NCBI GenBank assembly: GCA_944390945.1
Contig: CALXRV010000011.1
Coordinates: forward strand, 37,977-101,976
Direction of reading: 5' to 3'
DNA length: 64,000 nt
Source of the DNA: an uncultured Clostridia bacterium
Lineage (GTDB): Bacteria; Bacillota; Dehalobacteriia; UBA4068
Shown here: positions 211 through 53,892 of the stretch, one piece after another
How the letters are laid out: every line of letters begins with the position of its first letter
How positions within the stretch are numbered: position 1 is the first letter of the stretch
Notes under the pieces: model-generated
What the model was told of the DNA's origin: nothing
Seen by the model: only the letters and a program-made list of their open reading frames with translations
Database searches by the model: none
Made by a program: the position numbers and the translations under genes

Positions 211-770
211 TAAAGTGCGATCCTTAATCAAGCGGAACAGACCGGCTGTACCATAGCAGAGTAACGATGTTCAGCACCATTTTAACGGTAAGCCTGCATT
301 TAAGACATGACCTCTGCTTATGAAGGTAAAAGACAAGATCCCTATCAACAGATTCTGTATCGCGATCATGCTGTGTAAGAAACATCATGAGTATCCAGTG
401 GCGAATATGGAGACTGGAGCGCTGTTTCCCCCTTTTTCAATATCCATATCGCCGCTGCAGATGAAGGGTCCCATGTTTGTAAACGCGGAATAAAAATATG
501 TTTGATTGGTCAACAGCATCAGGAGGAATGGTTTTTTGAAGCTTGGCAAGTATGAATGTTTTCCGCTTGCATAAGGTTCGCGGTCGCCCGCTGTTTCCTG
601 CCACCGCTGTAATTCGCGTTTTGCCATATGCTTCCGGCGCTATGGCGTGAGGAATGACGAATGGAAACGGCAAACAGGATCGCTGTCTGCATCCTGTGGG
701 CAGGAGGAATCAAGCGTTGTTCGTATCTCTGTGTTGTTCGTATCTCTGTAAGGAAAAGCTTCGTTCAGGA

Positions 771-9716: not shown

Positions 9717-10799
9717 ATGTCGCAGGGTTATCTCATCTTGGAGGACGGTCAAGTCTTCACCGGCACACGTTGCGGCGCTGCAGGCGAAGTTATTGGCGAG
9801 CTGGTCTTTACCACCGGCATGACTGGTTATCTGGAAACATTGACCGACCCCAGTTATTTTGGGCAAATCATCATGCAGACTTTCCCTCTGATTGGGAATT
9901 ACGGTGTGATTCCAGAAGATTTTGAAAGCGACCATATCCATGCGAAAGCATATATCATACACGAGCTTTGCGCAGAGCCCAGTAATTTTCGCAGCCAAGG
10001 CCCCTTGGACGATTTTTTGAAGCAGCAGGGCATCCCCGGCTTGCGTAATGTAGATACGCGACGTCTGACCAGAATTGTTCGTGAACATGGCGTGATGAAT
10101 GCCATGCTCAGCGATAAGCCACAGTTGAATGCTGATCAAAAAGCCGCTCTACAGAATTATCGCGTCAAAGATGCGGTGTCGGCGGTAAGTTGCCAGCAAG
10201 CATCCAGTGCAGGCGAAGGTCGGCCTGTAGTGCTCTGGGATTTCGGCGCAAAAGGCCATATCCAGCGTGAACTGCTGCAGCGTGGTTGCCGTGTGATCAC
10301 CATGCCAGCAAGCACAACCGCCAGCGAAATTCTTGCCCTAAAGCCGCAGGGCATTGTACTTTCCAACGGACCGGGAGACCCGGCAGAAAACACGAAGATT
10401 ATTCATGAGCTGCATCTTTTGACCCAAAGCGGCATTCCGCTGTTTGGCATCTGCCTGGGGCATCAACTTTTAGCGCTTGCTTGCGGCGGCAAAACCGAAA
10501 AAATGAAATATGGGCATCGTGGCGCCAATCAACCGGTAAAAGATATGGATACCGGTCGTGTCCACATCACCAGTCAAAACCATGGTTATTGCGTGGTGGC
10601 GGAAAGCCTAGGGGCTGATGCGCAAATCAGCCATTGCAATGTCAACGACGGCAGCTGTGAAGGCGTGCGCTACAACAGTTTCCCTGCCATATCGGTACAA
10701 TTCCACCCGGAAGCTTGCGCCGGGCCACTCGATGAGCGTTCTATGTTCGATGATTTTATCACCATGATCAAGGAGGTCGGAGCAAATGCCGCTCAATAA
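9717..10799 (+). CDS. carA: Carbamoyl-phosphate synthase small (glutamine amidotransferase) subunit
   Basis: MSQGYLILEDGQVFTG...GEVIGELVFTTGMTGYLETLTDPSY is the canonical CarA N-terminus. GATase triad region GICLGHQLL. Start placed at the ATG at 9717 with GGAGG 6 nt upstream; the ORF track begins at an upstream TTG. Confidence 0.9.
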   Translation: MSQGYLILEDGQVFTGTRCGAAGEVIGELVFTTGMTGYLETLTDPSYFGQIIMQTFPLIGNYGVIPEDFESDHIHAKAYIIHELCAEPSNFRSQGPLDDFLKQQGIPGLRNVDTRRLTRIVREHGVMNAMLSDKPQLNADQKAALQNYRVKDAVSAVSCQQASSAGEGRPVVLWDFGAKGHIQRELLQRGCRVITMPASTTASEILALKPQGIVLSNGPGDPAENTKIIHELHLLTQSGIPLFGICLGHQLLALACGGKTEKMKYGHRGANQPVKDMDTGRVHITSQNHGYCVVAESLGADAQISHCNVNDGSCEGVRYNSFPAISVQFHPEACAGPLDERSMFDDFITMIKEVGANAAQ

Positions 10800-13700
10800 A
10801 GACATCAAACGTACATTGGTCATTGGCTCCGGTCCGATCGTCATCGGACAGGCGGCAGAATTCGACTATGCAGGCACACAGGCATGCCAGGCGCTGAAAG
10901 CAGATGGCATCGAAGTAATTCTGGTCAATTCCAACCCGGCCACTATCATGACGGATGGCCACATGGCCGACCATATTTATATTGAACCGTTGACGCTGAC
11001 CACCATCAAACGAATTATCCGCAAAGAAAAGCCGGACAGCATCCTCCCTACCCTGGGCGGACAGACCGGCCTGACGCTTGCCATGCAGCTGGCAAAGGAA
11101 GGGTTTCTGGCAGAACATGGCGTAAGGCTGCTTGGCGCCAGGCCGGATACGATCGACCGTGCCGAGGACAGGCTGCTGTTTAAGGAAGCGATGGCTGCCA
11201 TCGGGCAGCCAGTTGTTCCCTCCGACGTAGCGGAAGACCTGGATAGCGCGCTAGCCTTCGCCAGGCAGATCGGGTATCCGATCATTGTGCGGCCGGCTTT
11301 CACCCTAGGCGGCTCTGGCGGCGGCATTGCATATGATGAGAATGAACTGCGCGAAATTGCAACGCAGGGCCTGCGCGTCTCGCCGATCCACCAGATCCTG
11401 ATCGAGCAATGTATTTCCGGCTGGAAAGAAATTGAATTTGAAGTGATGCGCGATGCAGCTGGCAACTGTATTACGATTTGCTCGATGGAAAACTTTGATC
11501 CGGTGGGCGTGCATACCGGAGACAGCATCGTAATCGCCCCTGCCGTAACATTGGCGGATCGCGAATATCAGATGTTGCGCAGCGCTGCACTGCAGATCAT
11601 CGATTCGCTCGGGGTGGAAGGCGGCTGTAACTGTCAGTTCGCACTGAATCCCAACAGCATGGAATATGCGGTAATCGAAGTAAACCCACGCGTCAGCCGT
11701 TCTTCTGCACTGGCCAGTAAAGCGACCGGTTATCCGATCGCCAAAGTGGCAACCAAGATCGCCATTGGTTATCTGCTGCCGGAAATTCCGAACGCAGTCA
11801 CCGGCGGCAAGACCAGCGCCTGCTTTGAGCCGACGATCGACTATGTTGTGGTAAAACTGCCAAAATGGCCATTTGATAAATTTGTATATGCTAAGCGGAA
11901 CCTGGGCACGCAGATGAAGGCGACCGGTGAAGTGATGGGAATTGGCACTACTTTTGAAGAAGCGCTGATGAAAGCAGTACGTGGCGCTGAGATTGGCCGC
12001 GATACCCTCACCATGCCTGCACTGGCGCAGGCAACACCGGAAGAACTTGCGACCAAGCTGGATGATTGTGATGATCAGCGGCTGTTTGCTGTATATGCTG
12101 CAATCAAGGCCGGCGTTTCACTGGATATCATCTATGAAAAAACAAAGATCGATCGCTGGTTCCTTGCCAAGCTGCGGCATCTGGCGGAAACCGAACAGCG
12201 TCTGCTCACCGAACCACTGGATGACGAACTGTATCATAGCGCTCGCCAACTGGGATTTCTTAATGGCACGATCGAAAAACTGAGCGGACAGAAAATCCAA
12301 GCGCCAACCTATCCCGTCTATCGCATGGTCGATACCTGTGCGGCGGAATTCCGCGCGGAAACGCCATATTTTTATGCAGCCTGCGAGGGAGAAAATGAGG
12401 CAGCAGAATTTTTGGCCAGCCGCCCGGAATCGCGGCGCACGGTCGTCGTCTTCGGCGCCGGGCCAATCCGTATCGGCCAAGGTATCGAATTTGACTACGC
12501 CAGCGTTCACTGCGTCTGGTCTCTGCGCAAATGCGGTTATGATGTGGTGATCGTCAATAACAACCCGGAAACTGTCTCCACTGATTTTGATACAGCAGAC
12601 CGTCTCTATTTTGAACCACTGACACCGGAAGATGTGCTTGGCGTGCTGCGCACCGAAAAGCCTTATGGCGTTGTCGTGGCTTTCGGCGGACAAACGGCGA
12701 TCAAGTTAACCAGCTTCCTGGCTGAACAGGGATATCATATCCTAGGTACGCCGGCAGATAGTATCGATGCAGCGGAAGACCGTGAACGTTTTGATGCCCT
12801 GCTCAGTAAACTGGAGATCAAGCGACCGCAGGGACTCACGGTGATGACAACGGAAGAAGCGCTTGCTGCCGCAGAAAAGTTGGGTTATCCGGTATTACTG
12901 CGCCCGTCTTATGTCCTAGGCGGCCAGAATATGATCATTGCGTTTCAGCCAGACGACATCCGTGAATATATGGCGATCATCCTGGCACAGGGCATCAAAA
13001 ACCCCGTGCTGATCGACCAATATCTGATGGGAACAGAGCTGGAGGTAGATGCAATTTGCGATGGCGAAAATGTGCTAATCCCCGGTGTGATGGAGCATAT
13101 CGAGCGGGCCGGCGTGCATTCCGGCGATTCGATTGCCGTTTATCCGGCATGGAATGTAGATGATTCCATGTTGCAGCGCATTGTAGACTGCTCGCAGCAG
13201 CTGGCGCTCGGGCTGCATGTCTGCGGACTTGTTAATATTCAATACTTGATCTATCAAGATGAATTATATGTAATTGAAGTTAACCCGCGTTCTTCCCGTA
13301 CGGTCCCCTACCTAAGCAAGGTCACCGGCGTACCGATGGTAGATCTTGCCACCCGGGCCATGCTGGGAGAAAAACTGACGGATATGGGTTATGGTACTGG
13401 CCTGTACCCGATCCCGCCATATGTAGCGGTAAAGGTGCCTGTCTTTTCCTTTGAAAAGCTGGCGGACGCAGATACCCTGCTCGGGCCGGAGATGAAATCC
13501 ACCGGCGAAGTTCTTGGCGTTGCCAGCACGTTGTCAGAAGCTTTATATAAAGGGCTGACAGCAGCAGGCTATCGTATGGATAGCCATGGCGGCGTATTGT
13601 TTAGCGTTAAGAATACAGACCGGCCGGAACTGTACGATGTTGCTAAACGCTTCAGTGATCTCGGCTGCCCGCTTTATGCCACGCCCGGCAATGCACGCGT

Positions 13701-14835
13701 ATTACGCGAAACCGGCTTGCAGGTAACCGAAGTGCCTAAGCTTTCTTCTGGCAGCGATATGTTGCTGGAACTGATCGATCGCGGCGACATCGCCTATGTC
13801 GTCTCCACCTCAGCAAAAGGTCGTATCCCCACGCGTGACAGCGTGCGCATCCGGCGTAAAGCAATCGAGCGGGCTATCCCCTGCCTTACTTCAATCGATA
13901 CCGGCAATGCGCTGGCGGAAAGCATGGAAAGCCGTTATTCACAGCGCAACACGGAACTGGTGGATCTCAACCACCGCCGGCAAAGCCGGGTTCGGCTGCA
14001 TTTCTCCAAACTACAGGCCTGCGGCAGCGACTATCTCTGCTTTGATTGTCGCGACCAGCTGTTGGAGAATCCGGAAGGCCTGGCACTGCGTCTGAGCCGG
14101 CAGCATATCGGGATTGGCAGTTCTGGACTCTGCCTGCTCGTCCCTTCAGCAGATGCAGATTTCCGTATGGCAGCATACAACCAGGACGGCAGCGAAGACA
14201 AGATGAATGGGAACGCGTTGCAATGCCTGGCGAAATACGCGTCTGACCGTGGCATCATTCCCGCCGACCGTTTACATCTGCGCGTGGAAACCCGCAGCGG
14301 CATTCGCGATGTTTATCTGCATAAACGGAATGGTGAAGTCAAAGCCGTGACCGTTGATATGGGACCGGCGCGATTCGAAACAGCAGCACTGCCGGTAAAA
14401 CTGACTTTGCCGCAGCTGATCGATTATCCGCTTGCCGTGGGCAGTGGACACAGGATCACCTGCCTCAGCCTGGGTAACCCCCATGCGGTGACCTTTGTAG
14501 ATCAGATTGATTCCTTAAACGTCGCGCAGGAAGGGCCGCTGATTGAGCATGCAGAAATATTTACGGCACGCGTCAATGCTGAATTTGTGCGCATGCTGAG
14601 CGAAACTGCCTTGCGGATGCGTGTTTGGGAACGCGGCAATGGGGAAACGCCTTCTTGTGGCACCGGCGCCTGCGCTGCTGTTGCCGCTGCAGCGGAAAAT
14701 GGTTTTTGCCAGCGGGATACCGATGTGACGGTAAAAATGCAGGGCGGCGAGCAGGTGGTGCGCTATCTTTCCGATGGCAGTATCCGTACCACTGGCGAAG
14801 TAGAATTTGTCTACGAAGGAACAGTCGAAATCTAG
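10786..14835 (+). CDS. carB: Carbamoyl-phosphate synthase large subunit fused in frame to a C-terminal DapF-like (diaminopimelate-epimerase fold) domain, 1349 aa
   Basis: Residues 1 to about 1050 are a canonical CarB (two ATP-grasp halves, oligomerisation and MGS-like domains). A ~20-aa linker follows (YSQRNTELVDLNHRRQSRVR). Then comes a 279-aa DapF-like domain from nt 13996: FSKLQACGSDY, NQDGSEDKMNGNALQC, SLGNPHAV, WERGNGETPSCGTGACAA. The frame is continuous with no stop codon and no in-frame ATG/GTG/TTG at the junction. The ATG overlaps the carA stop. Confidence 0.8.
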   Translation: MPLNKDIKRTLVIGSGPIVIGQAAEFDYAGTQACQALKADGIEVILVNSNPATIMTDGHMADHIYIEPLTLTTIKRIIRKEKPDSILPTLGGQTGLTLAMQLAKEGFLAEHGVRLLGARPDTIDRAEDRLLFKEAMAAIGQPVVPSDVAEDLDSALAFARQIGYPIIVRPAFTLGGSGGGIAYDENELREIATQGLRVSPIHQILIEQCISGWKEIEFEVMRDAAGNCITICSMENFDPVGVHTGDSIVIAPAVTLADREYQMLRSAALQIIDSLGVEGGCNCQFALNPNSMEYAVIEVNPRVSRSSALASKATGYPIAKVATKIAIGYLLPEIPNAVTGGKTSACFEPTIDYVVVKLPKWPFDKFVYAKRNLGTQMKATGEVMGIGTTFEEALMKAVRGAEIGRDTLTMPALAQATPEELATKLDDCDDQRLFAVYAAIKAGVSLDIIYEKTKIDRWFLAKLRHLAETEQRLLTEPLDDELYHSARQLGFLNGTIEKLSGQKIQAPTYPVYRMVDTCAAEFRAETPYFYAACEGENEAAEFLASRPESRRTVVVFGAGPIRIGQGIEFDYASVHCVWSLRKCGYDVVIVNNNPETVSTDFDTADRLYFEPLTPEDVLGVLRTEKPYGVVVAFGGQTAIKLTSFLAEQGYHILGTPADSIDAAEDRERFDALLSKLEIKRPQGLTVMTTEEALAAAEKLGYPVLLRPSYVLGGQNMIIAFQPDDIREYMAIILAQGIKNPVLIDQYLMGTELEVDAICDGENVLIPGVMEHIERAGVHSGDSIAVYPAWNVDDSMLQRIVDCSQQLALGLHVCGLVNIQYLIYQDELYVIEVNPRSSRTVPYLSKVTGVPMVDLATRAMLGEKLTDMGYGTGLYPIPPYVAVKVPVFSFEKLADADTLLGPEMKSTGEVLGVASTLSEALYKGLTAAGYRMDSHGGVLFSVKNTDRPELYDVAKRFSDLGCPLYATPGNARVLRETGLQVTEVPKLSSGSDMLLELIDRGDIAYVVSTSAKGRIPTRDSVRIRRKAIERAIPCLTSIDTGNALAESMESRYSQRNTELVDLNHRRQSRVRLHFSKLQACGSDYLCFDCRDQLLENPEGLALRLSRQHIGIGSSGLCLLVPSADADFRMAAYNQDGSEDKMNGNALQCLAKYASDRGIIPADRLHLRVETRSGIRDVYLHKRNGEVKAVTVDMGPARFETAALPVKLTLPQLIDYPLAVGSGHRITCLSLGNPHAVTFVDQIDSLNVAQEGPLIEHAEIFTARVNAEFVRMLSETALRMRVWERGNGETPSCGTGACAAVAAAAENGFCQRDTDVTVKMQGGEQVVRYLSDGSIRTTGEVEFVYEGTVEI

Positions 14836-21261: not shown

Positions 21262-21891
21262 ATGGCTACTTTACACCTGGTCGACCATCCAATGATCCAG
21301 CATAAGCTGACGATCATGCGCAAAAAAGACACCAGCACGAAAGACTTCCGCGAGCTGCTCAACGAGATATCCATGCTGCTCGGTTATGAAGTGACGCGAG
21401 ATTTTCCCGTCTGTGATGTGGAAATTGAAACCCCTCTGCAAAAAATGACGGGCAAAGAGATCACCGGAAAAAAGGTTGCTATCGTGCCGATTTTGCGCGC
21501 CGGCCTGGGGATGGTAGACGGCCTGGTCAGCCTGGTTCCGGTGGCAAAGGTCGGGCATATCGGCCTCTATCGGGATGAAACTACACATAAACCTGTGTTC
21601 TACTACTGTAAATTGCCGCTTGATATCGAGCAGCGAATCGTCATCATCTGCGACCCCATGCTGGCAACCGGCGGCAGCGCTTGCGATGCCATCCAGCTGC
21701 TTAAAGATAAAGGCTGTGCCAGTATTCGCTTGATGTGCCTGGTTTCCGCCCCGGAAGGGATCGCTAAAGTGCAACAGGAACACCCGGATGTAGATATCTA
21801 TACGGCAGCAGTGGATACTTGCTTGAATGAACACGCCTATATCCTGCCTGGTCTTGGCGATGCGGGCGACCGTATTTTCGGCACGAAATAA
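21262..21891 (+). CDS. upp: Uracil phosphoribosyltransferase
   Basis: [47 protein letters not shown]...[11 protein letters not shown] are canonical Upp motifs. SD AAAGGAGAA. Confidence 0.95.
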
Positions 21892-22009: not shown

Positions 22010-23350
22010 CTACTCCACTGGGAAAGCAGCGTCCTCTGCCTCTACCTGCATATCAAAGGTATAATCATTGCCCGGCAGGATGGCATTGAGCAGAATACCG
22101 GCAATAGCAGCCACCGCCAGACCAGAAAGCGTGATCACCGCTTCGCCGACCTGGAAAGTAACGCCGCCGGCCGCATTAAAGCCAAGCGCAAACACCAGCA
22201 CGACTGCAGCAATGATCAGGTTACGCGTTTTGGTGAAATCGACGCGGTTATCCACAAGATTACGGATGCCGACGGCGGAGATCATGCCGTAGAGCACCAG
22301 AGAAACGCCGCCGATGATTGCCGTCGGGATGGAATGGACAATCTCACTGAACTTGGGAATAAAGCTGAGTAGCACTGCGATAACAGCCGCGATACGGATC
22401 ACACGTGGATCGTAAACCTTGGTCAGCACGAGTACGCCGGTATTCTCGCCGTAAGTAGTATTGGCCGGACCGCCAAAGATGGCGGAAAGGCTGGTCGCAA
22501 TACCATCCCCCAATAAAGTACGGTGTAGGCCCGGCTTGACAATATAATTTTTGCCAGTAGTGGCGGAAATCGCGCATATATCTCCGATGTGTTCCATCAT
22601 CGTTGCCAACGCGATCGGCACAATGGCGATGATTGCGGAAACATCAAATTTGGCGATCATGATTTCCGGTAAACCAACAATATCCGCTTCCTGCACCAAT
22701 GTGAAATCGACCTGATTCATGAACAGGGCAACGATATAGGAGACCACAATACCCAGCAGAATGGGAATGATTTTAATCATCCCTTTACCAAAGATATTGG
22801 CAACGATGATGACGACCAGCGCAATCATCGCCAGCAGCCAGTTCGTCTGGCAGTTCGTGATCGCGCTCGGTGCAAGGATAAGGCCGATGGCAATAATCAT
22901 CGGGCCGACGACTACCGGCGGGAAAAAGCGCATCACGCGTTGCGTACCGAAAGATTTGATCAGCAGGGCCAATATCACATAAAGCAAGCCGGAGACGGCA
23001 ACACCGCCGCAGGCATAAGGCAGCATCTCCACGTTTGGCGAACCATCCGCCAGTAACGGCGCCACTGCCGCATAGCCGCCCAAAAATGCGAAAGAAGAGC
23101 CAAGAAAAGCAGGCACCTGCAATTTCGTCAGCAGGTGAAACAGCAGTGTGCCCAAACCCGCCATCAGCAATGCCGTACTGACCTCAAGACCGGTGAGCAA
23201 GGGCACCAGCACCGTTGCGCCGAACATTGCAAAAGCATGCTGGAAACCAAGGATCAGCATTTTCGGTACACCAAGCGTCCTTGCATCATAAATCCCTTCC
23301 ACACCCAGCTTAGACTGACTTGCCTTGACCTCATCAATTCGCGCTGCCAT
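22010..23350 (-). CDS. pyrP: Uracil/xanthine permease (NCS2 family; likely uracil permease given the adjacent upp)
   Basis: 446 aa with NCS2 motifs (LGFQHAFAMFGATVLVPLLTGL...). Start placed at ATG (MAARIDEV) with SD GGGGAGG 6 nt upstream. The ORF track extends 36 codons further upstream. Confidence 0.8.
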   Translation of the reverse strand: MAARIDEVKASQSKLGVEGIYDARTLGVPKMLILGFQHAFAMFGATVLVPLLTGLEVSTALLMAGLGTLLFHLLTKLQVPAFLGSSFAFLGGYAAVAPLLADGSPNVEMLPYACGGVAVSGLLYVILALLIKSFGTQRVMRFFPPVVVGPMIIAIGLILAPSAITNCQTNWLLAMIALVVIIVANIFGKGMIKIIPILLGIVVSYIVALFMNQVDFTLVQEADIVGLPEIMIAKFDVSAIIAIVPIALATMMEHIGDICAISATTGKNYIVKPGLHRTLLGDGIATSLSAIFGGPANTTYGENTGVLVLTKVYDPRVIRIAAVIAVLLSFIPKFSEIVHSIPTAIIGGVSLVLYGMISAVGIRNLVDNRVDFTKTRNLIIAAVVLVFALGFNAAGGVTFQVGEAVITLSGLAVAAIAGILLNAILPGNDYTFDMQVEAEDAAFPVE

Positions 23351-23400
23351 AAGTACCTCCCCAATCTGAATGAATATAAGTGCAACTGCCTGAATCCAAT

Positions 23401-23478
23401 AAAAAACATCTTGCCGTTTCCGACAAGACGCGCAAGACCGCCGCGCCAAGCGCGGCAAACCATATGGTATCTTGTCGG
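23401..23478 (-). promoter_or_regulatory. Transcription attenuator in the pyrP leader: intrinsic terminator (TCTTGTCGgaaaCGGCAAGA then TGTTTTTT) with a mutually exclusive upstream antiterminator segment (GCCGACAAGA) and an intervening GC hairpin
   Basis: Read on the minus strand between the promoter and the pyrP SD. The upstream 9-nt segment CCGACAAGA is perfectly complementary to the 5' arm of the terminator. This is a classic terminator/antiterminator arrangement. Confidence 0.55.
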
Positions 23479-23608: not shown

Positions 23609-24616
23609 TTACTGTGCTTCAAAACAGCAGTAAAGTAATTCTGCAGCTCCGATCCCACGCAGAGGAATGACCTGCGTCTGCAAATACCCGGCCAACGCTT
23701 CACGTGTAAACGGCAGACCGTGAAAGCCGTCCAGGAAAGGCGTCAGTGCAGCATCCGCAAAAAAATCTCCGGTCATATGGAATTCCGCAATACGCCCTGC
23801 GGATAATTTGATCGCAATTTCTACTTTTCCGGCAGGAAAACGGTGATGGAAGCTGCAATCCGCCTGCGGTGAAGCGCCAAAATTCCATTCCCAGCTTCTG
23901 TATTTTTCCTCTGCCAGCTGCCGAATCGCCTCCTGCTCCTCTGCGTTCGGTACATATCGCTGCAACCCGCCGGGTTGCACAGCAGCAAAAGCTGCAGCCA
24001 ATGCATCCCGAAAGGCAAGAACATCCATCCGGCCTCCATCTGGTAAAAGCGCATGGATATTCTGTACGCGTGCGCGTACCGAGGCAACGCCTTTACTGTG
24101 AATTTTTTCCGGATCAACCGCCAGTGTATGTGCGAGCTGCTCCATATCCACATCAAACAGCAGCGTGCCATGATGCAGCAGCCTGCCTTGATGCAAAAAT
24201 TGCGCATTGCCGGAAACCTTCCTGCCGCAAATCTCAATATCATTGCGGCCGCTTATTTGCGCAGACAAGCCCATCGCGCGCAGTGCAGCGGTAATCCGTT
24301 CCGCAAAGGGAGCAAAATCTGGCTTTTGCCGATCATCATGGTCGAGGAGAAACGAGAAATTGAGATTGCCCAAATCATGAAAGACCGCGCCGCCGCCGGA
24401 ATTGCGCCGCACAACTGCAATCTGCTTCTGCTCACAATAGGGCAGGTTTACTTCAGCCAAAGTGTTCTGATAGCGCCCCACGATCACCGCTGGTGCATTG
24501 CGCCAGAGAATAAAAAAAGAACGGTCGCGCTGCTGACAAAAAAATTCTTCCAAAGCCAAATTATAAGCGGCATCTGTCACCGGATTCTCGATATAATACA
24601 TTTTTTGCTCTTCCAT
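23609..24616 (-). CDS. lplA: Lipoate-protein ligase A
   Basis: MYYIENPVTDAAYNLALEEFF...ILWRNAPAVIVGRYQNTLAEVN...VVRRNSGGGAVFHDLGNLNFSF is the LplA catalytic-domain signature. Start chosen at ATGGAAGAG (MEEQKMYY) with a GGGGG SD. The ORF-track start (MGAPMEEQK...) and the internal ATG of MYYIENP are alternatives. Confidence 0.85.
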   Translation of the reverse strand: MEEQKMYYIENPVTDAAYNLALEEFFCQQRDRSFFILWRNAPAVIVGRYQNTLAEVNLPYCEQKQIAVVRRNSGGGAVFHDLGNLNFSFLLDHDDRQKPDFAPFAERITAALRAMGLSAQISGRNDIEICGRKVSGNAQFLHQGRLLHHGTLLFDVDMEQLAHTLAVDPEKIHSKGVASVRARVQNIHALLPDGGRMDVLAFRDALAAAFAAVQPGGLQRYVPNAEEQEAIRQLAEEKYRSWEWNFGASPQADCSFHHRFPAGKVEIAIKLSAGRIAEFHMTGDFFADAALTPFLDGFHGLPFTREALAGYLQTQVIPLRGIGAAELLYCCFEAQ

Positions 24617-24802
24617 AGGCGCCCCCAAGGTTGTTAAGCCATGATTTCCTCTATCCTATCACAGGCAAGTGCTCCTTGCAAGAAAAGCACCGCCTTTAAC
24701 GGAAATATGCTATAATACAGAAAGACCGCATACTGCCCTACGGCGCTAATTCCCAATCATGACCCGGCATAAGAACAAATTTTTCCATCAAGGAGCCTCA
24801 TT

Positions 24803-27800
24803 ATGTTCATTGCAGATCTGCATATCCATGCTAAATATTCCCGCGCCACCAGCCAGGACTGCATACCGGAACTGCTCGATCAGGCAGCGCGACAAAAAGG
24901 CTTATTGCTGTTGGGAACTGGCGATTGTACGCATGCCGCCTACCGTGCAGAGCTACGCGAACAACTGGAGGAAGCAGAAGACGGCCTTTATCGGCTGAAG
25001 CCGAGTCTGGTTCGCCCGCTGTCGGGCGCACTGCAGGATGCACCTGCCCCGCGCTTCATCATCAGCGGCGAAATCAGCACCATTTATAAACAGAGCGGCA
25101 AAGTACGCAAGATCCATCATCTAATCCTCTTCCCTTCCCTGTCTGCAGCAGAGGAACTCAGCCGCCGTTTGGAGCAGCTCGGCTGTAATCTGCATGCTGA
25201 TGGCAGGCCGATTATTGGTCTTTCCAGCCATGATCTGCTGGAACTAACGCTGGATGCCTGCCCACAGGCCATCTTTATCCCAGCGCATATCTGGACGCCA
25301 CATTTTTCCCTATTTGGCGCATATTCCGGTTTTGATACTGTAGAAGAATGCTTTGGCGACCTGACGCCACAAATCCATGCGCTGGAGACCGGGCTTTCCG
25401 GAGATCCGCCTATGCATTGGCGGCTTTCCCAGCTGGACCGCTACGCACTTGTATCCAATTCCGACGCGCATTCGCCAGCACGGCTGGCGCGCGAAGCAAA
25501 CCTCTTCTCCTGCGAGCTCAGCTATCCAGCACTTTCGGAAGCGCTTTCCACACCGCATCATCCCGGATTTTATGGCACGATTGAATTCTTCCCGGAAGAG
25601 GGGAAATACCATTACGACGGACACCGCAACTGCCATGTCAGCCTAGCGCCGGCAGAAACTGAGGCGCTGCAGGGTGTATGCCCGGTTTGCGGCGGCAGGT
25701 TGACCGTCGGCGTACTGCATCGTGCTGATGCGCTTGCCGACCGGCCATTAGGCTTTCATCCACCGCAAGCACGGCCATTTGAAAGCCTGGTACCGTTGGT
25801 CGAAGTGATCGCTGCCTCCAGCGGCCTTAGCCCCAACAGCGTCAAAGCGCGGCGGCAATACGATGCCTTGTTGCAAGTTTTGGGACCAGAGCTTCGCATC
25901 CTGCGTGAAACGCCGCTCGAACTGGTCGAGCAACATGCAGGCATCTGCGTGGCAGAGGGATTGCGCCGCCTACGTGCGGGTGAAGTACGCGTCACCCCAG
26001 GATTTGATGGCGAATATGGCAAAGTGAGCATTCTGGACGCTGAAGATATTGACCGGCTTAGCGGTCAGGCTTCTCTGTTCGCATGCTCATCTGCCGAAGA
26101 AAAATTCAGTCCAGACACCATCCACGCTGAGCCTGCGACAAACATCGGGCATCCCGCCCAGACCGGCAAGAACGAGAAGGCAAGAACGGATGTGGAACTC
26201 AATGCGGCACAGTTACGCGCCGTACACAGCACGGCTGCGACAACAGCTGTCATCGCCGGACCTGGTACTGGCAAAACAAAAACGTTGATCAGCAGGGTCA
26301 TCGAGTTGATTGAAACGCGCGGCGCTGCAGCGGAAGAAATTACGGCAGTTACCTTCACCAATAAGGCGGCAGCAGAGCTTCAGGAACGCTTGAAGGCACA
26401 TTTTCATGATAAACGACTGGTCCGGGAAATCCATGTCGGTACATTCCACAGCCTTTGCCTGCGCTTGCTTACTGCTGCGGGGCAAGCGCCCGTCATCCTT
26501 GACGGGGCAGAGGCACGGTCGATCGCTGCTGATCTGGTTACGGAACTGGGGCTAAAAAGCAGCGCAAAGGAAGCTTTGTCCTGCATTTCCCGTCATAAAA
26601 ACACCATGACTGCGGCTGAAAATGTAGAAGAAGCCGAGCTGGTCGCTGCTTATCAGGCCTCATTGCAGCAGCTTGGCGCACTGGATTTTGATGATATCCT
26701 CTCCGCTGCGCTGCAGCTGTGCGAGCAACAACCACAGCGATTGGGCAACATGTGCCGCCACCTGTTAGTCGATGAATTTCAGGATATCAACGAGGTGCAA
26801 TACCGCCTGATCCGCGCCTGGCAGCGCCAGGGTGAAACCTTGTTTGTGATCGGCGATCCAGATCAGGCAATCTACGGCTTTCGTGGTGCATCCGCAGATT
26901 GTTTTACTCAGTTACAGGCAGATCAACCGGATCTGGAGCTGATCCGGTTGACGAAAAATTATCGTTCAACACCAGAGATCCTTGCCGCCAGCCTGCCCGT
27001 CATCAATAAAAATCCCGGTGCACCACGCCAACTGCAGGCAGCTCGCCCACATGGGGACAAACTGCGCCACTATCACACAGCCAGCGCTGACCCGGCTTTT
27101 CAGGAGGCCATTTTTATTGCCAAAGAGATTAACCGTCTCGTCGGTGGTATCGATATGTTACAGGCGCATGCCGATGGCAGTGCATCAGCAGCGCGCAGTT
27201 TTCGTGATATCGCCGTCCTCTACCGTACACATCGCCAAGCGGAAATGATTGCCTATGCTCTGGAGCATGACGGCATCCCCTATACAGCGGCCGGCCGGGA
27301 GGAGCTGCCGGAAGATGATATCATTCGCGATACGCTTGCCTTCTTCCGCTTTCTGCTCAACCCGGCAGATCTAATCTCTCTGCGGCGGACTTTGCTTGCC
27401 AGCGGGGCTTCGCTTGCCACACAACAGCAGCTGTGCAATGCCTATGCTGGCCTACGCAAAAAAAGCGTTGCTGGGTTAATAAAGCAGATTGCTGCGCTGG
27501 GGGAAGATGCCTCGTTACATCGGTTTGCAGAACAAGTAGCTGTCTATACCACGCGCATGCGGCGGGAAAAACCGCATAAGCTGCTGTCCAGCTGGATTGA
27601 GGAAAACCATCTCAGCGGTATCGCCGCCCTGGAAGACCTCTGCCAGATAGCAGTTCTTCAGCCCAGTATGTCCAGCTTATTGCAAACGCTGGCGCTGGGA
27701 TTGGATGCTGATATCGTCAGAAATGGCAGCCAAACCTGCCAGGCCGATGCCGTTCGTCTGATGACGTTGCACGCTGCCAAAGGGTTGGAATTCCCCGTTG

Positions 27801-28042
27801 TCTTTCTCTGCGGCATCCGAGACGGCTGTTTGCCGCTGCAGATCGGTGGCAGCAGCAATCTGGAAGAAGAGCGCCGCTTATTTTTTGTCGGCATGACCCG
27901 CGCAGCAGAAACGTTATATTTACTAACAGGCGATCCGCCTTCGCCTTTCTTCAGCGCCATTCCAAAAGCGCAACTGGAGACAATCCATCCACAGCAGAGA
28001 CGTCCACAGCCGCTGGGCAAACAGCTCAGTCTGTTCGACTAA
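24803..28042 (+). CDS. Fusion protein: N-terminal EndoQ-like PHP-domain nuclease with zinc ribbon (about 420 aa) joined to a C-terminal UvrD/Rep-family superfamily-1 helicase (about 650 aa)
   Basis: N-terminus ADLHIHAKYSRATS, LLGTGDCTH, IHHLILFPSL, ADGRPI, IPAHIWTPHFSL, LSGD, SNSDAHSP, EGKYHYDGHRNC, CPVCGG and GFDGEYG track the conserved blocks of endonuclease Q. The C-terminus has helicase motifs: IAGPGTGKTKTLISR (motif I), TFTNKAAAELQERL, VDEFQDIN (II), GDPDQAIYGFRGA, TKNYRSTPEIL, LMTLHAAKGLEFPVVFL, FFVGMTRAAETLYL. SD AAGGAG. Confidence 0.8.
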   Translation: MFIADLHIHAKYSRATSQDCIPELLDQAARQKGLLLLGTGDCTHAAYRAELREQLEEAEDGLYRLKPSLVRPLSGALQDAPAPRFIISGEISTIYKQSGKVRKIHHLILFPSLSAAEELSRRLEQLGCNLHADGRPIIGLSSHDLLELTLDACPQAIFIPAHIWTPHFSLFGAYSGFDTVEECFGDLTPQIHALETGLSGDPPMHWRLSQLDRYALVSNSDAHSPARLAREANLFSCELSYPALSEALSTPHHPGFYGTIEFFPEEGKYHYDGHRNCHVSLAPAETEALQGVCPVCGGRLTVGVLHRADALADRPLGFHPPQARPFESLVPLVEVIAASSGLSPNSVKARRQYDALLQVLGPELRILRETPLELVEQHAGICVAEGLRRLRAGEVRVTPGFDGEYGKVSILDAEDIDRLSGQASLFACSSAEEKFSPDTIHAEPATNIGHPAQTGKNEKARTDVELNAAQLRAVHSTAATTAVIAGPGTGKTKTLISRVIELIETRGAAAEEITAVTFTNKAAAELQERLKAHFHDKRLVREIHVGTFHSLCLRLLTAAGQAPVILDGAEARSIAADLVTELGLKSSAKEALSCISRHKNTMTAAENVEEAELVAAYQASLQQLGALDFDDILSAALQLCEQQPQRLGNMCRHLLVDEFQDINEVQYRLIRAWQRQGETLFVIGDPDQAIYGFRGASADCFTQLQADQPDLELIRLTKNYRSTPEILAASLPVINKNPGAPRQLQAARPHGDKLRHYHTASADPAFQEAIFIAKEINRLVGGIDMLQAHADGSASAARSFRDIAVLYRTHRQAEMIAYALEHDGIPYTAAGREELPEDDIIRDTLAFFRFLLNPADLISLRRTLLASGASLATQQQLCNAYAGLRKKSVAGLIKQIAALGEDASLHRFAEQVAVYTTRMRREKPHKLLSSWIEENHLSGIAALEDLCQIAVLQPSMSSLLQTLALGLDADIVRNGSQTCQADAVRLMTLHAAKGLEFPVVFLCGIRDGCLPLQIGGSSNLEEERRLFFVGMTRAAETLYLLTGDPPSPFFSAIPKAQLETIHPQQRRPQPLGKQLSLFD

Positions 28043-28109: not shown

Positions 28110-28538
28110 ATGATTTCAGACGCGGATATGCTCAACCATGTCTACCAGGCAGCGGATATGGGACGCGCCGGAATTTTGGATCTGTTAAAGCTGGCAGAGG
28201 ACAGCTCCTTTCGCCAGTCGCTCAACCAGCAACTCGCAGAATATGAAACGCTGATGTCCCAAGCTGGCAGTATGATGCGCTCACGCCATATTCAGCGCGA
28301 AGAAGCAAGCCCGATGGCAAAAATTTCGTCGCAGATGATGACGACGGTCAAATCCCTCGGCGACCGCTCCCCCTCCCATCTGGCGGAAATGATGATCCAG
28401 GGGAATACCATGGGCGTCACAAAAAGTATTAAGCACTTGAATGACTATCAGCATGGCGACAGCGAGATCCGGCATCTGGCGGAAAAGTTGTTAGCGACTG
28501 AGCAGGCGAATATCGATCAAATGAAAACTTATCTATAA
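28110..28538 (+). CDS. Hypothetical all-helical protein (possibly spore-coat-protein-F / ferritin-like four-helix family)
   Basis: 142-aa ORF starting at the ATG with AGGAGG 9 nt upstream (the ORF track begins 20 codons earlier). No diagnostic catalytic motifs. Conserved acidic/His positions spaced along predicted helices. Confidence 0.5.
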   Translation: MISDADMLNHVYQAADMGRAGILDLLKLAEDSSFRQSLNQQLAEYETLMSQAGSMMRSRHIQREEASPMAKISSQMMTTVKSLGDRSPSHLAEMMIQGNTMGVTKSIKHLNDYQHGDSEIRHLAEKLLATEQANIDQMKTYL

Positions 28539-28597: not shown

Positions 28598-29725
<1,128 letters not shown>

Positions 29726-49213: not shown

Positions 49214-51648
<2,435 letters not shown>

Positions 51649-53892
51649 TCAGATTTTTTTCATCGGCGCATATTTCCATAACAGCTTCTTGACGCCATAC
51701 GCCGGAAACGCTACCGTAACCTGCATATCATCCCCGCTGCCGCTAACTGCAACCGCTACGCCATCGCCGAATTTGCCATGCCGCAATTTATCGCCAACCC
51801 GAATCAATGCGGGTTCCTTTTTTTCCGTCGTAAACGCTGCAACCGGCGCCCGCGGTACGAAAAGATTACCGGTTAAACGGCTGCCATGCGCAGCAGGCGC
51901 CGTCTCCACGCGGCGTGGAGTGCTGCCGCTGCGAATAATATTTTCTGCAGGCAATTCTTCCAGAAAACGCGACGGCTTATTCGTCTCATATTTCCCCCAA
52001 TACTGACGATGATCGCAGGCGGTCAGAAACAGCCGCTCCCGCGCACGCGTCATCCCCACATAACAAAGTCGGCGTTCCTCCTCCAGCTCACTCTCATCCG
52101 GGCTGAATACGACACGCTTATGCGGGAAAACGCCCTCTTCCATACCGACCATAAATACGACGGGAAATTCCAGCCCCTTTGCGGCATGCAGCGTCATCAG
52201 GCTAAGGCAGCTTTGTTCCGAGCCAGCCGTATCCAGATCTGTCGCCAGCGAGACCTGGCTTAAAAAAGCAAGCAACGGCCTTTCCTCATACGCCTCCTCG
52301 CCCGCCTCTGCCGCCAAAGCAGGGTCCAGATACATCAGGTCAAAATCACCTGCTGTGTCGACCAGCTGCTCCAAAATCTCGAGACGGCTTTCCGCATCCT
52401 CGGCGGCAGCGATCGCAGCCGCATAGCCGGTCCGCTCCCATACCTCACGGATGATATCCGCCACAGCAATCGCTTCCGCAGCAAAAGCACGCAGGCCTTC
52501 CAGCAGATGATACAATGCCCGCAGTTTGCCTTTCGCCGCAGCAGTCAGCTCCAGCTGATCCACGGCAGCAAGTGTCGACCACAGCGACCCCTGCCGCCCC
52601 GCCGCTGCTTCCTCCAGTTTTTCCCAAGTAGTTTTTCCAATGCCGCGCCGCGGTTCATTATAGATCCGGCGCAGCGCTTCGCTGTCATGAGGATTGGCCA
52701 GCACGCGCAGATAAGCCAGCGTATCCTTAACTTCCTTCCGCTCGTAAAACTTCATACCGCCATAAACGCGGTAAGGAATCTTGAAGCGGATGCATTCATC
52801 CTCCAGCAGACGGCTCTGCCCATGTGTGCGGTAGAGCACAGCACAATCCGCCAAGCTGTAGCCTTCGTCGACCAGGCGCATGACATTGCGCACAGCAAAA
52901 GCCGCCTCCTCACGGTCGCTTCCGGCCTGATAGCAAATGATCTTTTCGCCAGCGCCAGCATCGGTGAACAAATCCTTCGGTTTCCGCGCCCGGTTATGGC
53001 TGATCAGGGCATTCGCTGCATCAAGGATATTCTGCGTGGAACGATAATTCTGCGTCAGGCGCAGCTCCACACAATCTGGATAATCCCGGTTAAAATCCAG
53101 GATATTGGAAATATCCGCCCCGCGCCAACGATAGATGGACTGGTCCGGGTCGCCGACAGCAAAGATATGCCCATCTTCCCCGGCCAGCAGACGAATCAAT
53201 CTATACTGGCAATGATTCGTATCCTGATACTCGTCGACCAGAATATGACGGAAGCGCGCACGGTAACGCGCCAGCACTTCCGGGCAGCGTTGCAAATACC
53301 AAACCGTATGCGTCAGCAAATCATCAAAATCCAAGGCATGGTTTTCCTTCAACCGGGTTTGGTAGCGGCGGTAAATCCGCGCAATGTTCTCATGCCAGTC
53401 ATCTGCCGGTGCATGCGCCGGATAATCCACAGATGAGATCAGTTTATTCTTTGCCGCGCTGATCGCCGCTGCCACCGCGCTCGGCTGATAACTCTTCTCA
53501 TCCTGCAGATGCAGCTCAGCCAGTACATGCTTCAGCACGCTGCGCGAATCCGCATCATCATAGATCACAAAATCCCGCCCCAGGCCAAACGCATCGCCTT
53601 CCATGCGCAGCAAGCGACTGCATAGGGCATGGAAAGTGCCAATCCACATCCAGCGGCTGCGCAGGCCGGTCATCTCCTCCAGCCTTTCCTTCATCTCATT
53701 TGCTGCTTTATTGGTAAATGTAACGGCCATCAGACCATATGGATCAGCCTCGCCCTGCGCAATCAGCCAAGCAGCACGGCTCACCAGCACGCGCGTTTTA
53801 CCACTGCCTGCACCGGCAATCACCAGCAGGTGTTGCGCCTGGGAAACAACAGCAGCCCGCTGTTGATCATTCAATCCTTCCAAAATATCCAT
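51649..53892 (-). CDS. pcrA: ATP-dependent DNA helicase PcrA (UvrD family)
   Basis: MDILEGLNDQQRAAV...LLVIAGAGSGKTRVLVSRAAWLI (motif I), DEYQDTN (II) and further SF1 motifs. 747 aa. Canonical pcrA-ligA gene pair. Confidence 0.95.
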   Translation of the reverse strand: MDILEGLNDQQRAAVVSQAQHLLVIAGAGSGKTRVLVSRAAWLIAQGEADPYGLMAVTFTNKAANEMKERLEEMTGLRSRWMWIGTFHALCSRLLRMEGDAFGLGRDFVIYDDADSRSVLKHVLAELHLQDEKSYQPSAVAAAISAAKNKLISSVDYPAHAPADDWHENIARIYRRYQTRLKENHALDFDDLLTHTVWYLQRCPEVLARYRARFRHILVDEYQDTNHCQYRLIRLLAGEDGHIFAVGDPDQSIYRWRGADISNILDFNRDYPDCVELRLTQNYRSTQNILDAANALISHNRARKPKDLFTDAGAGEKIICYQAGSDREEAAFAVRNVMRLVDEGYSLADCAVLYRTHGQSRLLEDECIRFKIPYRVYGGMKFYERKEVKDTLAYLRVLANPHDSEALRRIYNEPRRGIGKTTWEKLEEAAAGRQGSLWSTLAAVDQLELTAAAKGKLRALYHLLEGLRAFAAEAIAVADIIREVWERTGYAAAIAAAEDAESRLEILEQLVDTAGDFDLMYLDPALAAEAGEEAYEERPLLAFLSQVSLATDLDTAGSEQSCLSLMTLHAAKGLEFPVVFMVGMEEGVFPHKRVVFSPDESELEEERRLCYVGMTRARERLFLTACDHRQYWGKYETNKPSRFLEELPAENIIRSGSTPRRVETAPAAHGSRLTGNLFVPRAPVAAFTTEKKEPALIRVGDKLRHGKFGDGVAVAVSGSGDDMQVTVAFPAYGVKKLLWKYAPMKKI

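Follow-up and report, generated by a model that had tools for sequence, protein, structure and literature searches.

The 64,000-nucleotide (nt) stretch of DNA analysed here, hereafter the window, is taken from the assembly of an uncultured Clostridia bacterium (GCA_944390945.1, contig CALXRV010000011.1, positions 37,977 to 101,976 of the forward strand). It contains a single open reading frame (ORF) that joins an endonuclease Q (EndoQ) nuclease to a UvrD-type helicase in one protein of 1079 amino acids (aa; Table 1). The fusion protein comprises two intact catalytic modules under purifying selection, which are connected by a flexible linker and accompanied by two conserved motifs that resemble those binding the beta sliding clamp, and its gene lies in a housekeeping setting. 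An earlier note on this DNA had read residues 1 to about 420 as EndoQ and the C-terminal remainder as a complete UvrD/Rep helicase, covalently fused in one polypeptide and separate from a canonical pcrA gene elsewhere in the window, and all of these readings hold. The two beta-clamp-binding-type motifs, recognized in the protein sequence, were missed by that note; they are new here and are the most informative clue to function.

The fusion gene is a single uninterrupted ORF, and its start site is supported by homologues of the protein that begin at the same MFIADLHIH. A protein identical to the product (P0001) is present in a public metagenome, and the best 120 database relatives are 51-71% identical to it, with lengths of 1028-1123 aa and a query coverage of 98-100% (100% for 117 of the 120). 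The identical metagenomic protein and these full-length relatives show that the ORF is a genuine, conserved gene rather than the product of a frameshift or of misassembly.

Table 1. Features of the fusion gene and of other genes in the window (positions counted from the first letter of the window)
Feature	Residues (aa)	Position (nt)	Strand	Remarks
EndoQ-UvrD fusion gene, whole ORF	1-1079	24803..28042	+	ATG start, 1079 aa plus stop; EndoQ module, linker, superfamily 1A (SF1A) helicase, C-terminal tail
Ribosome-binding site AAGGAG		24790..24795	+	7 nt 5' of the ATG, read from the sequence
Endonuclease Q module	1-411	24803..26035	+	PHP catalytic domain, zinc-binding domain, C-terminal helical domain
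Zinc-binding segment GKYHYDGHRNC...CPVCGG		25601..25696	+	putative ligands H274, C277, C293, C296
Internal clamp-binding-type motif GQASLF	421-426	26063..26080	+	right after the nuclease module, at the start of the disordered linker
Disordered, poorly conserved linker	426-463	26078..26191	+	AlphaFold2 pLDDT <50; no consensus in 59-sequence alignment
UvrD/PcrA/Rep-type SF1A helicase core	465-1042	26195..27928	+	Pfam PF00580 1.6e-57, PF13361 2.1e-43
Helicase motif I AGPGTGKT	485-492	26255-26278	+	
Helicase motif Ia TFTNKAA	517-523		+	
Helicase motif II VDEFQD	656-661	26768-26785	+	
Helicase motif III GDPDQAIYGFRGA	684-696	26852-26890	+	
Helicase motif IV NYRS	719-722		+	
Helicase motif V TLHAAKGLEF	988-997	27764-27793	+	
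Helicase motif VI RRLFFVGMTRA	1024-1034	27872-27904	+	
C-terminal clamp-binding-type motif QLSLF	1074-1078	28022..28036	+	one residue before the stop; protein ends ...GKQLSLFD
142-aa helical ORF		28110-28538	+	alternative start 28050; directly downstream of the fusion gene
upp (uracil phosphoribosyltransferase)		21262-21891	+	
Uracil permease		22010-23458	-	
lplA (lipoate-protein ligase)		23609-24628	-	
tgt		28598-29725	-	
ligA, NAD-dependent		49558-51624	-	directly follows pcrA
pcrA, canonical		51649-53892	-	TIGR01073 818 bits over full length, slightly under cutoff 911

The EndoQ nuclease and the fused helicase

EndoQ cuts DNA directly 5' of deoxyuridine, deoxyinosine, deoxyxanthosine or abasic sites, leaving a 3'-OH and a 5'-phosphate (PMC4357722). 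All of the EndoQ motif blocks listed in the earlier note are present in order in the N-terminal module, namely DLHIHAKYSRATS (residues 5-17), LGTGD (37-41), HHLILFPS (105-112), ADGRP (132-136), PAHIWTPH (160-167), SNSDAHSP (218-225), GKYHYDGHRNC (267-277), CPVCGG (293-298) and GFDGEYG (400-406). A phmmer search of the PDB aligns residues 4-411 of the fusion protein end to end with residues 5-383 of the Pyrococcus furiosus enzyme (PfuEndoQ; 5zb8, 7k30) at an E-value of 3e-45, and with Foldseek the predicted N-terminal module matches the same two structures at a template modelling (TM) score of 0.85-0.87. It had been expected that a domain search of residues 1-420 would return a PHP model together with an EndoQ model, and only the latter came up: EndoQ was recovered by phmmer and by the NCBIfam model TIGR00375 (149.8 bits for the fusion protein), while the Pfam PHP models have no match in the protein. 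Since the TIGR00375 score lies below its cutoff and the Pfam PHP models are silent, the nuclease goes unnamed in public annotation. The Pfam model MJ0043_C (PF27218) has a precomputed match in most relatives, and none is recorded for the fusion protein of the window. A generic PHP phosphoesterase was considered as an alternative identity and rejected, as the EndoQ match is full-length, including the zinc-binding and helical domains, and the Pfam PHP models give no signal.

The resemblance extends to individual residues. Those that coordinate zinc or are essential by mutagenesis in PfuEndoQ are H8, H10, E76, H84, R114, H139, D193 and H195 (PMC5961232), and in the alignment they correspond, in this order, to H7, H9, E90, H105, R135, H162, D221 and H223 of the fusion protein. 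Seven of these eight are unchanged in the 120 relatives, H7/H9 being missing only in one N-terminally gapped member, and R135 is invariant in the 59-sequence family alignment. The lesion pocket of PfuEndoQ is formed by H139, T142, E167, L168, G169, L170, S171, N191 and D193, of which L168 lines the pocket by main-chain atoms (PMC5961232), and the equivalents are H162, T165, E195, T196, G197, L198, S199, N219 and D221, so that Pfu L168 to Thr196 is the sole change. H162, T165, E195, G197, L198 and S199 are unchanged in 120/120 relatives and N219 in 117/120. The His/Gly/Ser trio by which PfuEndoQ excludes thymine and adenine (H139, G169 and S171; PMC8307549) is kept as H162, G197 and S199. The putative zinc ligands (Table 1) are likewise invariant in 120/120 relatives, with His in place of the Cys that comes first in the C4 site of the archaeal enzymes. 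Three changes relative to PfuEndoQ are each invariant in the fused family: W144 to His167, L168 to Thr196 and the first zinc-site Cys to His274. The assignment of the N-terminal module as a genuine EndoQ-type PHP nuclease is therefore supported at the level of sequence, of individual residues and of the predicted fold.

Compared with the archaeal enzymes of P. furiosus and Thermococcus kodakarensis (5zb8, 7k30-7k33), the fusion has the same three-domain layout with ~28-31% identity over the whole enzyme, and it shares with them the metal ligands, the catalytic residues, most pocket residues and a short clamp-interaction motif after the module. The archaeal proteins differ in being stand-alone, with ~420 aa and a PCNA-interacting protein (PIP) box for PCNA, whereas the fusion carries ~650 further residues with the helicase and motifs of the bacterial beta-clamp type. 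In addition, the putative zinc site of the fusion is H-C-C-C in place of C4, and its PHP domain contains a 22-residue insertion (aa 66-80 and 94-100).

The helicase region scores above the cutoffs of Pfam PF00580, PF13361 and PF13245 (AAA_19). A dead helicase was considered and rejected, since motifs I to VI are all present (Table 1) and are invariant in the 59-sequence family alignment. An AlphaFold2 model of the fusion protein, built on 59 family sequences, has a mean predicted local distance difference test (pLDDT) score of 85.1; the helicase part, with pLDDT mostly >85, has the 1A/1B/2A/2B fold, and Foldseek matches it to DNA-bound UvrD (2is6), PcrA (3pjr), DrUvrD (4c2u) and Rep with TM scores of 0.77-0.79 and root-mean-square deviations of 3.6-5 Å. 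None of the equivalog cutoffs is reached by the fused helicase, the scores being 341 bits against 911 for pcrA (TIGR01073), 297 against 951 for rep and 274 against 1144 for uvrD, and its TIGR01073 score is also well below that of the window's canonical PcrA (Table 1). The two are 34% identical in an alignment that covers PcrA residues 7-648 of 747, and because the alignment stops at residue 648 the fused helicase lacks the PcrA C-terminal extension. In PcrA and UvrD this extension is an RNA-polymerase-binding domain. What follows motif VI in the fusion protein is a segment of 37 residues, predicted to be disordered. Thus, the motifs I-VI and the four-subdomain fold are common to PcrA, UvrD, Rep and the fused helicase, and the latter differs from PcrA in having an added N-terminal nuclease, in lacking the ~100-aa extension and in ending in a clamp-binding-type motif. 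As judged from these comparisons of sequence, it is an SF1A helicase of the UvrD/PcrA type, intact and paralogous to this genome's pcrA; it is orthologous to none of PcrA, UvrD and Rep.

Clamp-binding-type motifs and the spread of the fusion

The sequence QL(S/D)LF is the textbook bacterial beta-clamp-binding consensus (Dalrymple consensus), which we take the QLSLF at the C-terminus of the fusion protein to fit. The pattern Q[LVIMF]x[LFM]F occurs in the last 12 residues of 105 of the 120 homologues, the remaining 15 having near variants such as QLNIF or QASLF, and its background is 0.1% of internal 12-aa windows. In the species genomes, 66 of the 77 complete ORFs have a looser form, with a wider choice of residues at positions 2, 4 and 5, within their final 14 aa. 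The internal motif has the family consensus G-Q-(L/I/M)-(S/C)-(F/L)-F, with G421 and Q422 invariant in 120/120 relatives and the surrounding linker unconserved; very few of the fused copies in genomes lack it. Both motifs lie at the edge of or inside predicted disordered segments (the C-terminal tail, residues 1066-1079, is disordered in the AlphaFold2 model), as expected of short linear docking motifs. By analogy, the pair parallels the PIP box at the C-terminus of archaeal EndoQ, which binds PCNA with a dissociation constant of 55 nM and is needed for the stimulation of cleavage by PCNA; beta-clamp-type sequences have been remarked upon at the C-termini of bacterial EndoQ homologues (PMC4858679).

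To survey the distribution of the nuclease, two EndoQ peptide patterns were run against a genome set in which each GTDB species has one representative. Among the 600 stretches listed, 581 were confirmed as relatives. EndoQ had been regarded in the earlier note as known mainly from Thermococcales and a few Bacillus species, a description that does not survive this survey, as at least 581 species-representative bacterial genomes encode a confirmed relative and the fused form dominates among the closest of them. The best 80 of these loci include 77 complete ORFs, 68 of which encode helicase motifs I and II along with the nuclease; L018 is an additional fusion whose helicase motifs are variant, and about 90% of the closest 80 loci are fused. 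Most carriers belong to the Clostridia (Oscillospiraceae, Lachnospiraceae, Christensenellaceae, Anaerotruncus, Enterocloster and Pseudoflavonifractor), with further ones in Syntrophomonadaceae, Moorellaceae, Dethiobacter and Negativicutes and in metagenome-assembled genomes (MAGs) labelled Treponema, Chloroflexi and Gemmatimonadetes. A search of a protein library reduced to clusters of 50% identity gave 1017 clusters matching the nuclease module at E<=1e-30, and ~131 of the best 150 of these are >=900 aa, as read from the listed lengths. The EndoQ-UvrD fusion is common, not rare, and the gene of the window is one more member.

In two loci, L013 (5375-7171) and L034 (5474-7411), the helicase lies in frame behind a stop codon after the EndoQ module, and in a third, L046 (5357-7053), it is frameshifted relative to that module; these three are either split genes, decaying copies or MAG sequencing errors. 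Five further loci (L068, L073, L075, L080 and L084, match at 4001-~5230), labelled Lacrimispora, Lachnospiraceae, Clostridium sp. or uncultured Clostridia, encode stand-alone EndoQ proteins of 407-421 aa that are 57-61% identical to the fused module. We looked for both clamp-type motifs in these five proteins and found neither, and a search for a helicase in their flanks and in those of a Brevibacillus gene described below gave none, that is, no split-gene version. The five appear to have lost the helicase secondarily.

No homologue of the nuclease module was found in 50,697 phage records, and 72,556 plasmid records gave a single match, a stand-alone 'endonuclease Q family protein' of Brevibacillus. 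The bacterial stand-alone enzymes (e.g., Brevibacillus WP_031414379) belong to the same nuclease family as the fusion module but have ~390 aa, no helicase, a C4 zinc site, 27% identity to the fusion module and a nudF-spoIIM-fur context. In Brevibacillus laterosporus (L085, 4989-6170; NZ_CP011075.1) the gene encodes a Bacilli-type stand-alone EndoQ of 393 aa with a C4 zinc site and no C-terminal QxSLF; it is flanked by a NUDIX hydrolase gene on one side and by spoIIM-fur-xerD on the other, and the 733-kb replicon that carries it is labelled a plasmid. EndoQ-like activity has been reported for the enzymes of Bacillus pumilus and B. subtilis (PMC5961232).

Relatives of the fusion carry the public names 'UvrD-helicase domain-containing protein' or 'TIGR00375 family', and because of the former name the nuclease function is invisible in genome annotation. 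Hence, the fusion is widespread and under-annotated, although it is built entirely of known parts and is visible in public databases. We know of no functional study of an EndoQ-helicase fusion, and full-text literature searches returned no description of one. An earlier mention may exist in Shiraishi et al. 2017, which, as summarized by Miyazono 2018 (PMC5961232), recognized three EndoQ families 'based on the domain organization', two of them bacterial; since these families follow domain organization, that work may already note the fused form.

Proposed function and rival explanations

Based on the residue-level resemblance to EndoQ, the intact helicase and the two clamp-type motifs, we put forward a hypothetical mechanism in which lesion incision by a clamp-tethered enzyme would be followed by helicase-driven displacement of the damaged strand. 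We favour this model and give it a probability of roughly 0.55. Specifically, the two QxSLF-type motifs would bring the enzyme, via the beta clamp, to DNA that has just been replicated, in the way that the PIP box and PCNA do for archaeal EndoQ. The EndoQ module would then flip out the lesion, an abasic site or a deaminated base (uracil, hypoxanthine or xanthine), and break the phosphodiester bond immediately 5' to it, so that one side of the nick ends in a 3'-OH and the lesion nucleotide carries a 5'-phosphate. SF1A helicases of the kind found here translocate 3'-to-5' and are able to begin at a nick; the classic example is UvrD, which unwinds from repair nicks during mismatch repair and nucleotide excision repair. 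The fused helicase could in the same manner enter at the nick using ATP and move 3'-to-5' on the intact strand, peeling off the strand that bears the lesion. A polymerase and LigA, the NAD-dependent ligase, could then complete the repair together with either an exonuclease or a 5' flap nuclease. We infer the substrate range, the polarity of the helicase, the direction of strand removal and the binding to the clamp from the properties of the respective families.

Several observations weigh against this mechanism. The TIGR00375 score is under the trusted cutoff of 326.6 bits, so the nuclease module is divergent, and the His167, Thr196 and His274 substitutions could alter its specificity. The close stand-alone copies, without the helicase or either motif, imply that the nuclease does not depend on the helicase, and the need for a helicase is not obvious because, in bacteria that have Pol I, nick translation could deal with the nick. 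The docking of the enzyme on the beta sliding clamp by the two motifs is assigned from motif resemblance, and the internal motif of the window protein, GQASLF, has Ala at its second position where most relatives carry L, I or M. The geometry between the domains is uncertain in the AlphaFold2 model (predicted TM score 0.58).

The stand-alone relatives do without the helicase, which makes it look accessory, and they lend some weight to the main rival, a different use of the motor: an ATP-driven translocase that would carry the nuclease along DNA in search of lesions, or free the enzyme from the DNA it has nicked, for turnover and hand-over of the nick to Pol I, and would not excise the damaged strand. 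Among SF1A enzymes, UvrD and PcrA are established protein-displacing translocases, and a disordered linker of this length would allow the nuclease and the helicase to work on one DNA with no rigid arrangement between them. We nevertheless consider this use unlikely, if worth keeping in view, as all of the helicase motifs and the full 1A/1B/2A/2B fold are kept as in true unwinding enzymes, although sequence does not separate translocase from helicase use. The union of an SF1A motor with a nuclease in one polypeptide is also seen in AddA, RecB and AdnB, and AddA/RecB is present among the weaker matches of the fusion protein. This architecture recalls a helicase-nuclease for the processing of DNA ends or replication forks, like AddA/RecB or AdnAB, in which the PHP domain would be a general single-strand nuclease; PfuEndoQ acts on single-stranded substrates as well (PMC4357722), and clamp binding would suit work at the fork too. 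However, AddA, RecB and AdnB have a C-terminal PD-(D/E)XK nuclease, partner subunits and a role at double-strand ends, whereas the nuclease of the fusion is N-terminal and of the PHP/EndoQ type. The AddA and RecB models match the helicase core alone, far under their cutoffs, and the fusion protein ends 37 aa after motif VI. With no AddB/RecC-like partner found at the locus or at three relatives' loci (L001, L003 and L004), and with the narrow pocket that excludes normal bases conserved residue for residue, end or fork processing appears quite improbable.

Least credible among the explanations is an anti-phage or anti-foreign-DNA system, akin to the GajB partners of Gabija, that would cut uracil-containing or deaminase-edited DNA and then unwind it. 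A possible antiviral role of Bacillus EndoQ has been mentioned in a review (PMC8307549), and the helicase part scores up to 259 bits against the PADLOC GajB models. These matches are limited to the generic helicase core, though, and are below the score for the PcrA model (341 bits), and neither a GajA-like (OLD/TOPRIM) gene nor another defence gene was found near the fusion gene or in L001, L003 and L004. The neighbours are housekeeping genes with conserved synteny, the gene is near-universal and vertically conserved in many Clostridia, its homologues are absent from the phage records and occur once in the plasmid records, and the conserved replication-clamp motif points to host DNA; we regard a defence function as highly improbable.

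If clamp-tethered incision followed by strand displacement is indeed what the enzyme does, it would remove uracil, hypoxanthine and abasic sites without a glycosylase, possibly in a large number of gut species. Helicase-driven strand displacement would then be indicated as the step that comes after EndoQ incision, and the fusion would name a likely downstream partner (a UvrD-type helicase) and a recruitment platform (the beta clamp), giving a testable model of alternative excision repair in Clostridia. A broader proposal, which we offer only tentatively, is that bacterial EndoQ is mainly an EndoQ-UvrD fusion with two beta-clamp motifs that would work as a replication-coupled nick-and-unwind machine, independent of glycosylases, and could be a main pathway for the repair of deamination in Clostridia. 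EndoQ is in use as a deaminase-assay reagent, so mesophilic variants might find practical applications.

Neighbouring genes and minor observations

The fusion gene is chromosomal and of housekeeping type, and it does not lie in a defence context. Its 71%-identical relative L003 keeps the order lplA, fusion gene, 142-aa ORF and tgt, and the more distant carriers L001 and L004 have unrelated neighbours; a comparison of the neighbours in L001, L003 and L004 revealed none in common that would be a conserved operon partner. The protein encoded directly downstream of the fusion gene had been suggested as a possible partner of it. The ORF exists and is probably co-transcribed with the fusion gene, because there is no terminator between them, and a hairpin terminator is present between the 142-aa ORF and tgt. 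Its product has no significant family match (a weak one to DUF2383 has an E-value of 0.0075), and a tblastn search for it in 84 related loci returned one, L003, at 80% identity. A role as conserved partner was rejected on this count, the only locus to have it being that syntenic relative. The genes upp and uracil permease are absent from the otherwise syntenic L003, and their position beside a putative uracil-DNA endonuclease is for this reason probably a coincidence.

By eye, an extended -10-like sequence, TGcTATAAT, can be seen at 24708-24716 (+), ~90 nt 5' of the fusion start codon, without a matching -35 element; a consensus promoter scan upstream of the fusion gene reported nothing, this sequence included. 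With regard to SOS regulation, a search for the LexA-type box GAAC-N4-GTTC throughout the window found none.

Elsewhere in the window, a 1349-aa ORF at 10786-14835 (+) encodes a complete carbamoyl-phosphate synthase large subunit (residues 1-1051) followed by a complete diaminopimelate epimerase DapF (residues 1072-1347), an unusual pairing of an enzyme of pyrimidine/arginine synthesis with one of lysine/peptidoglycan synthesis.

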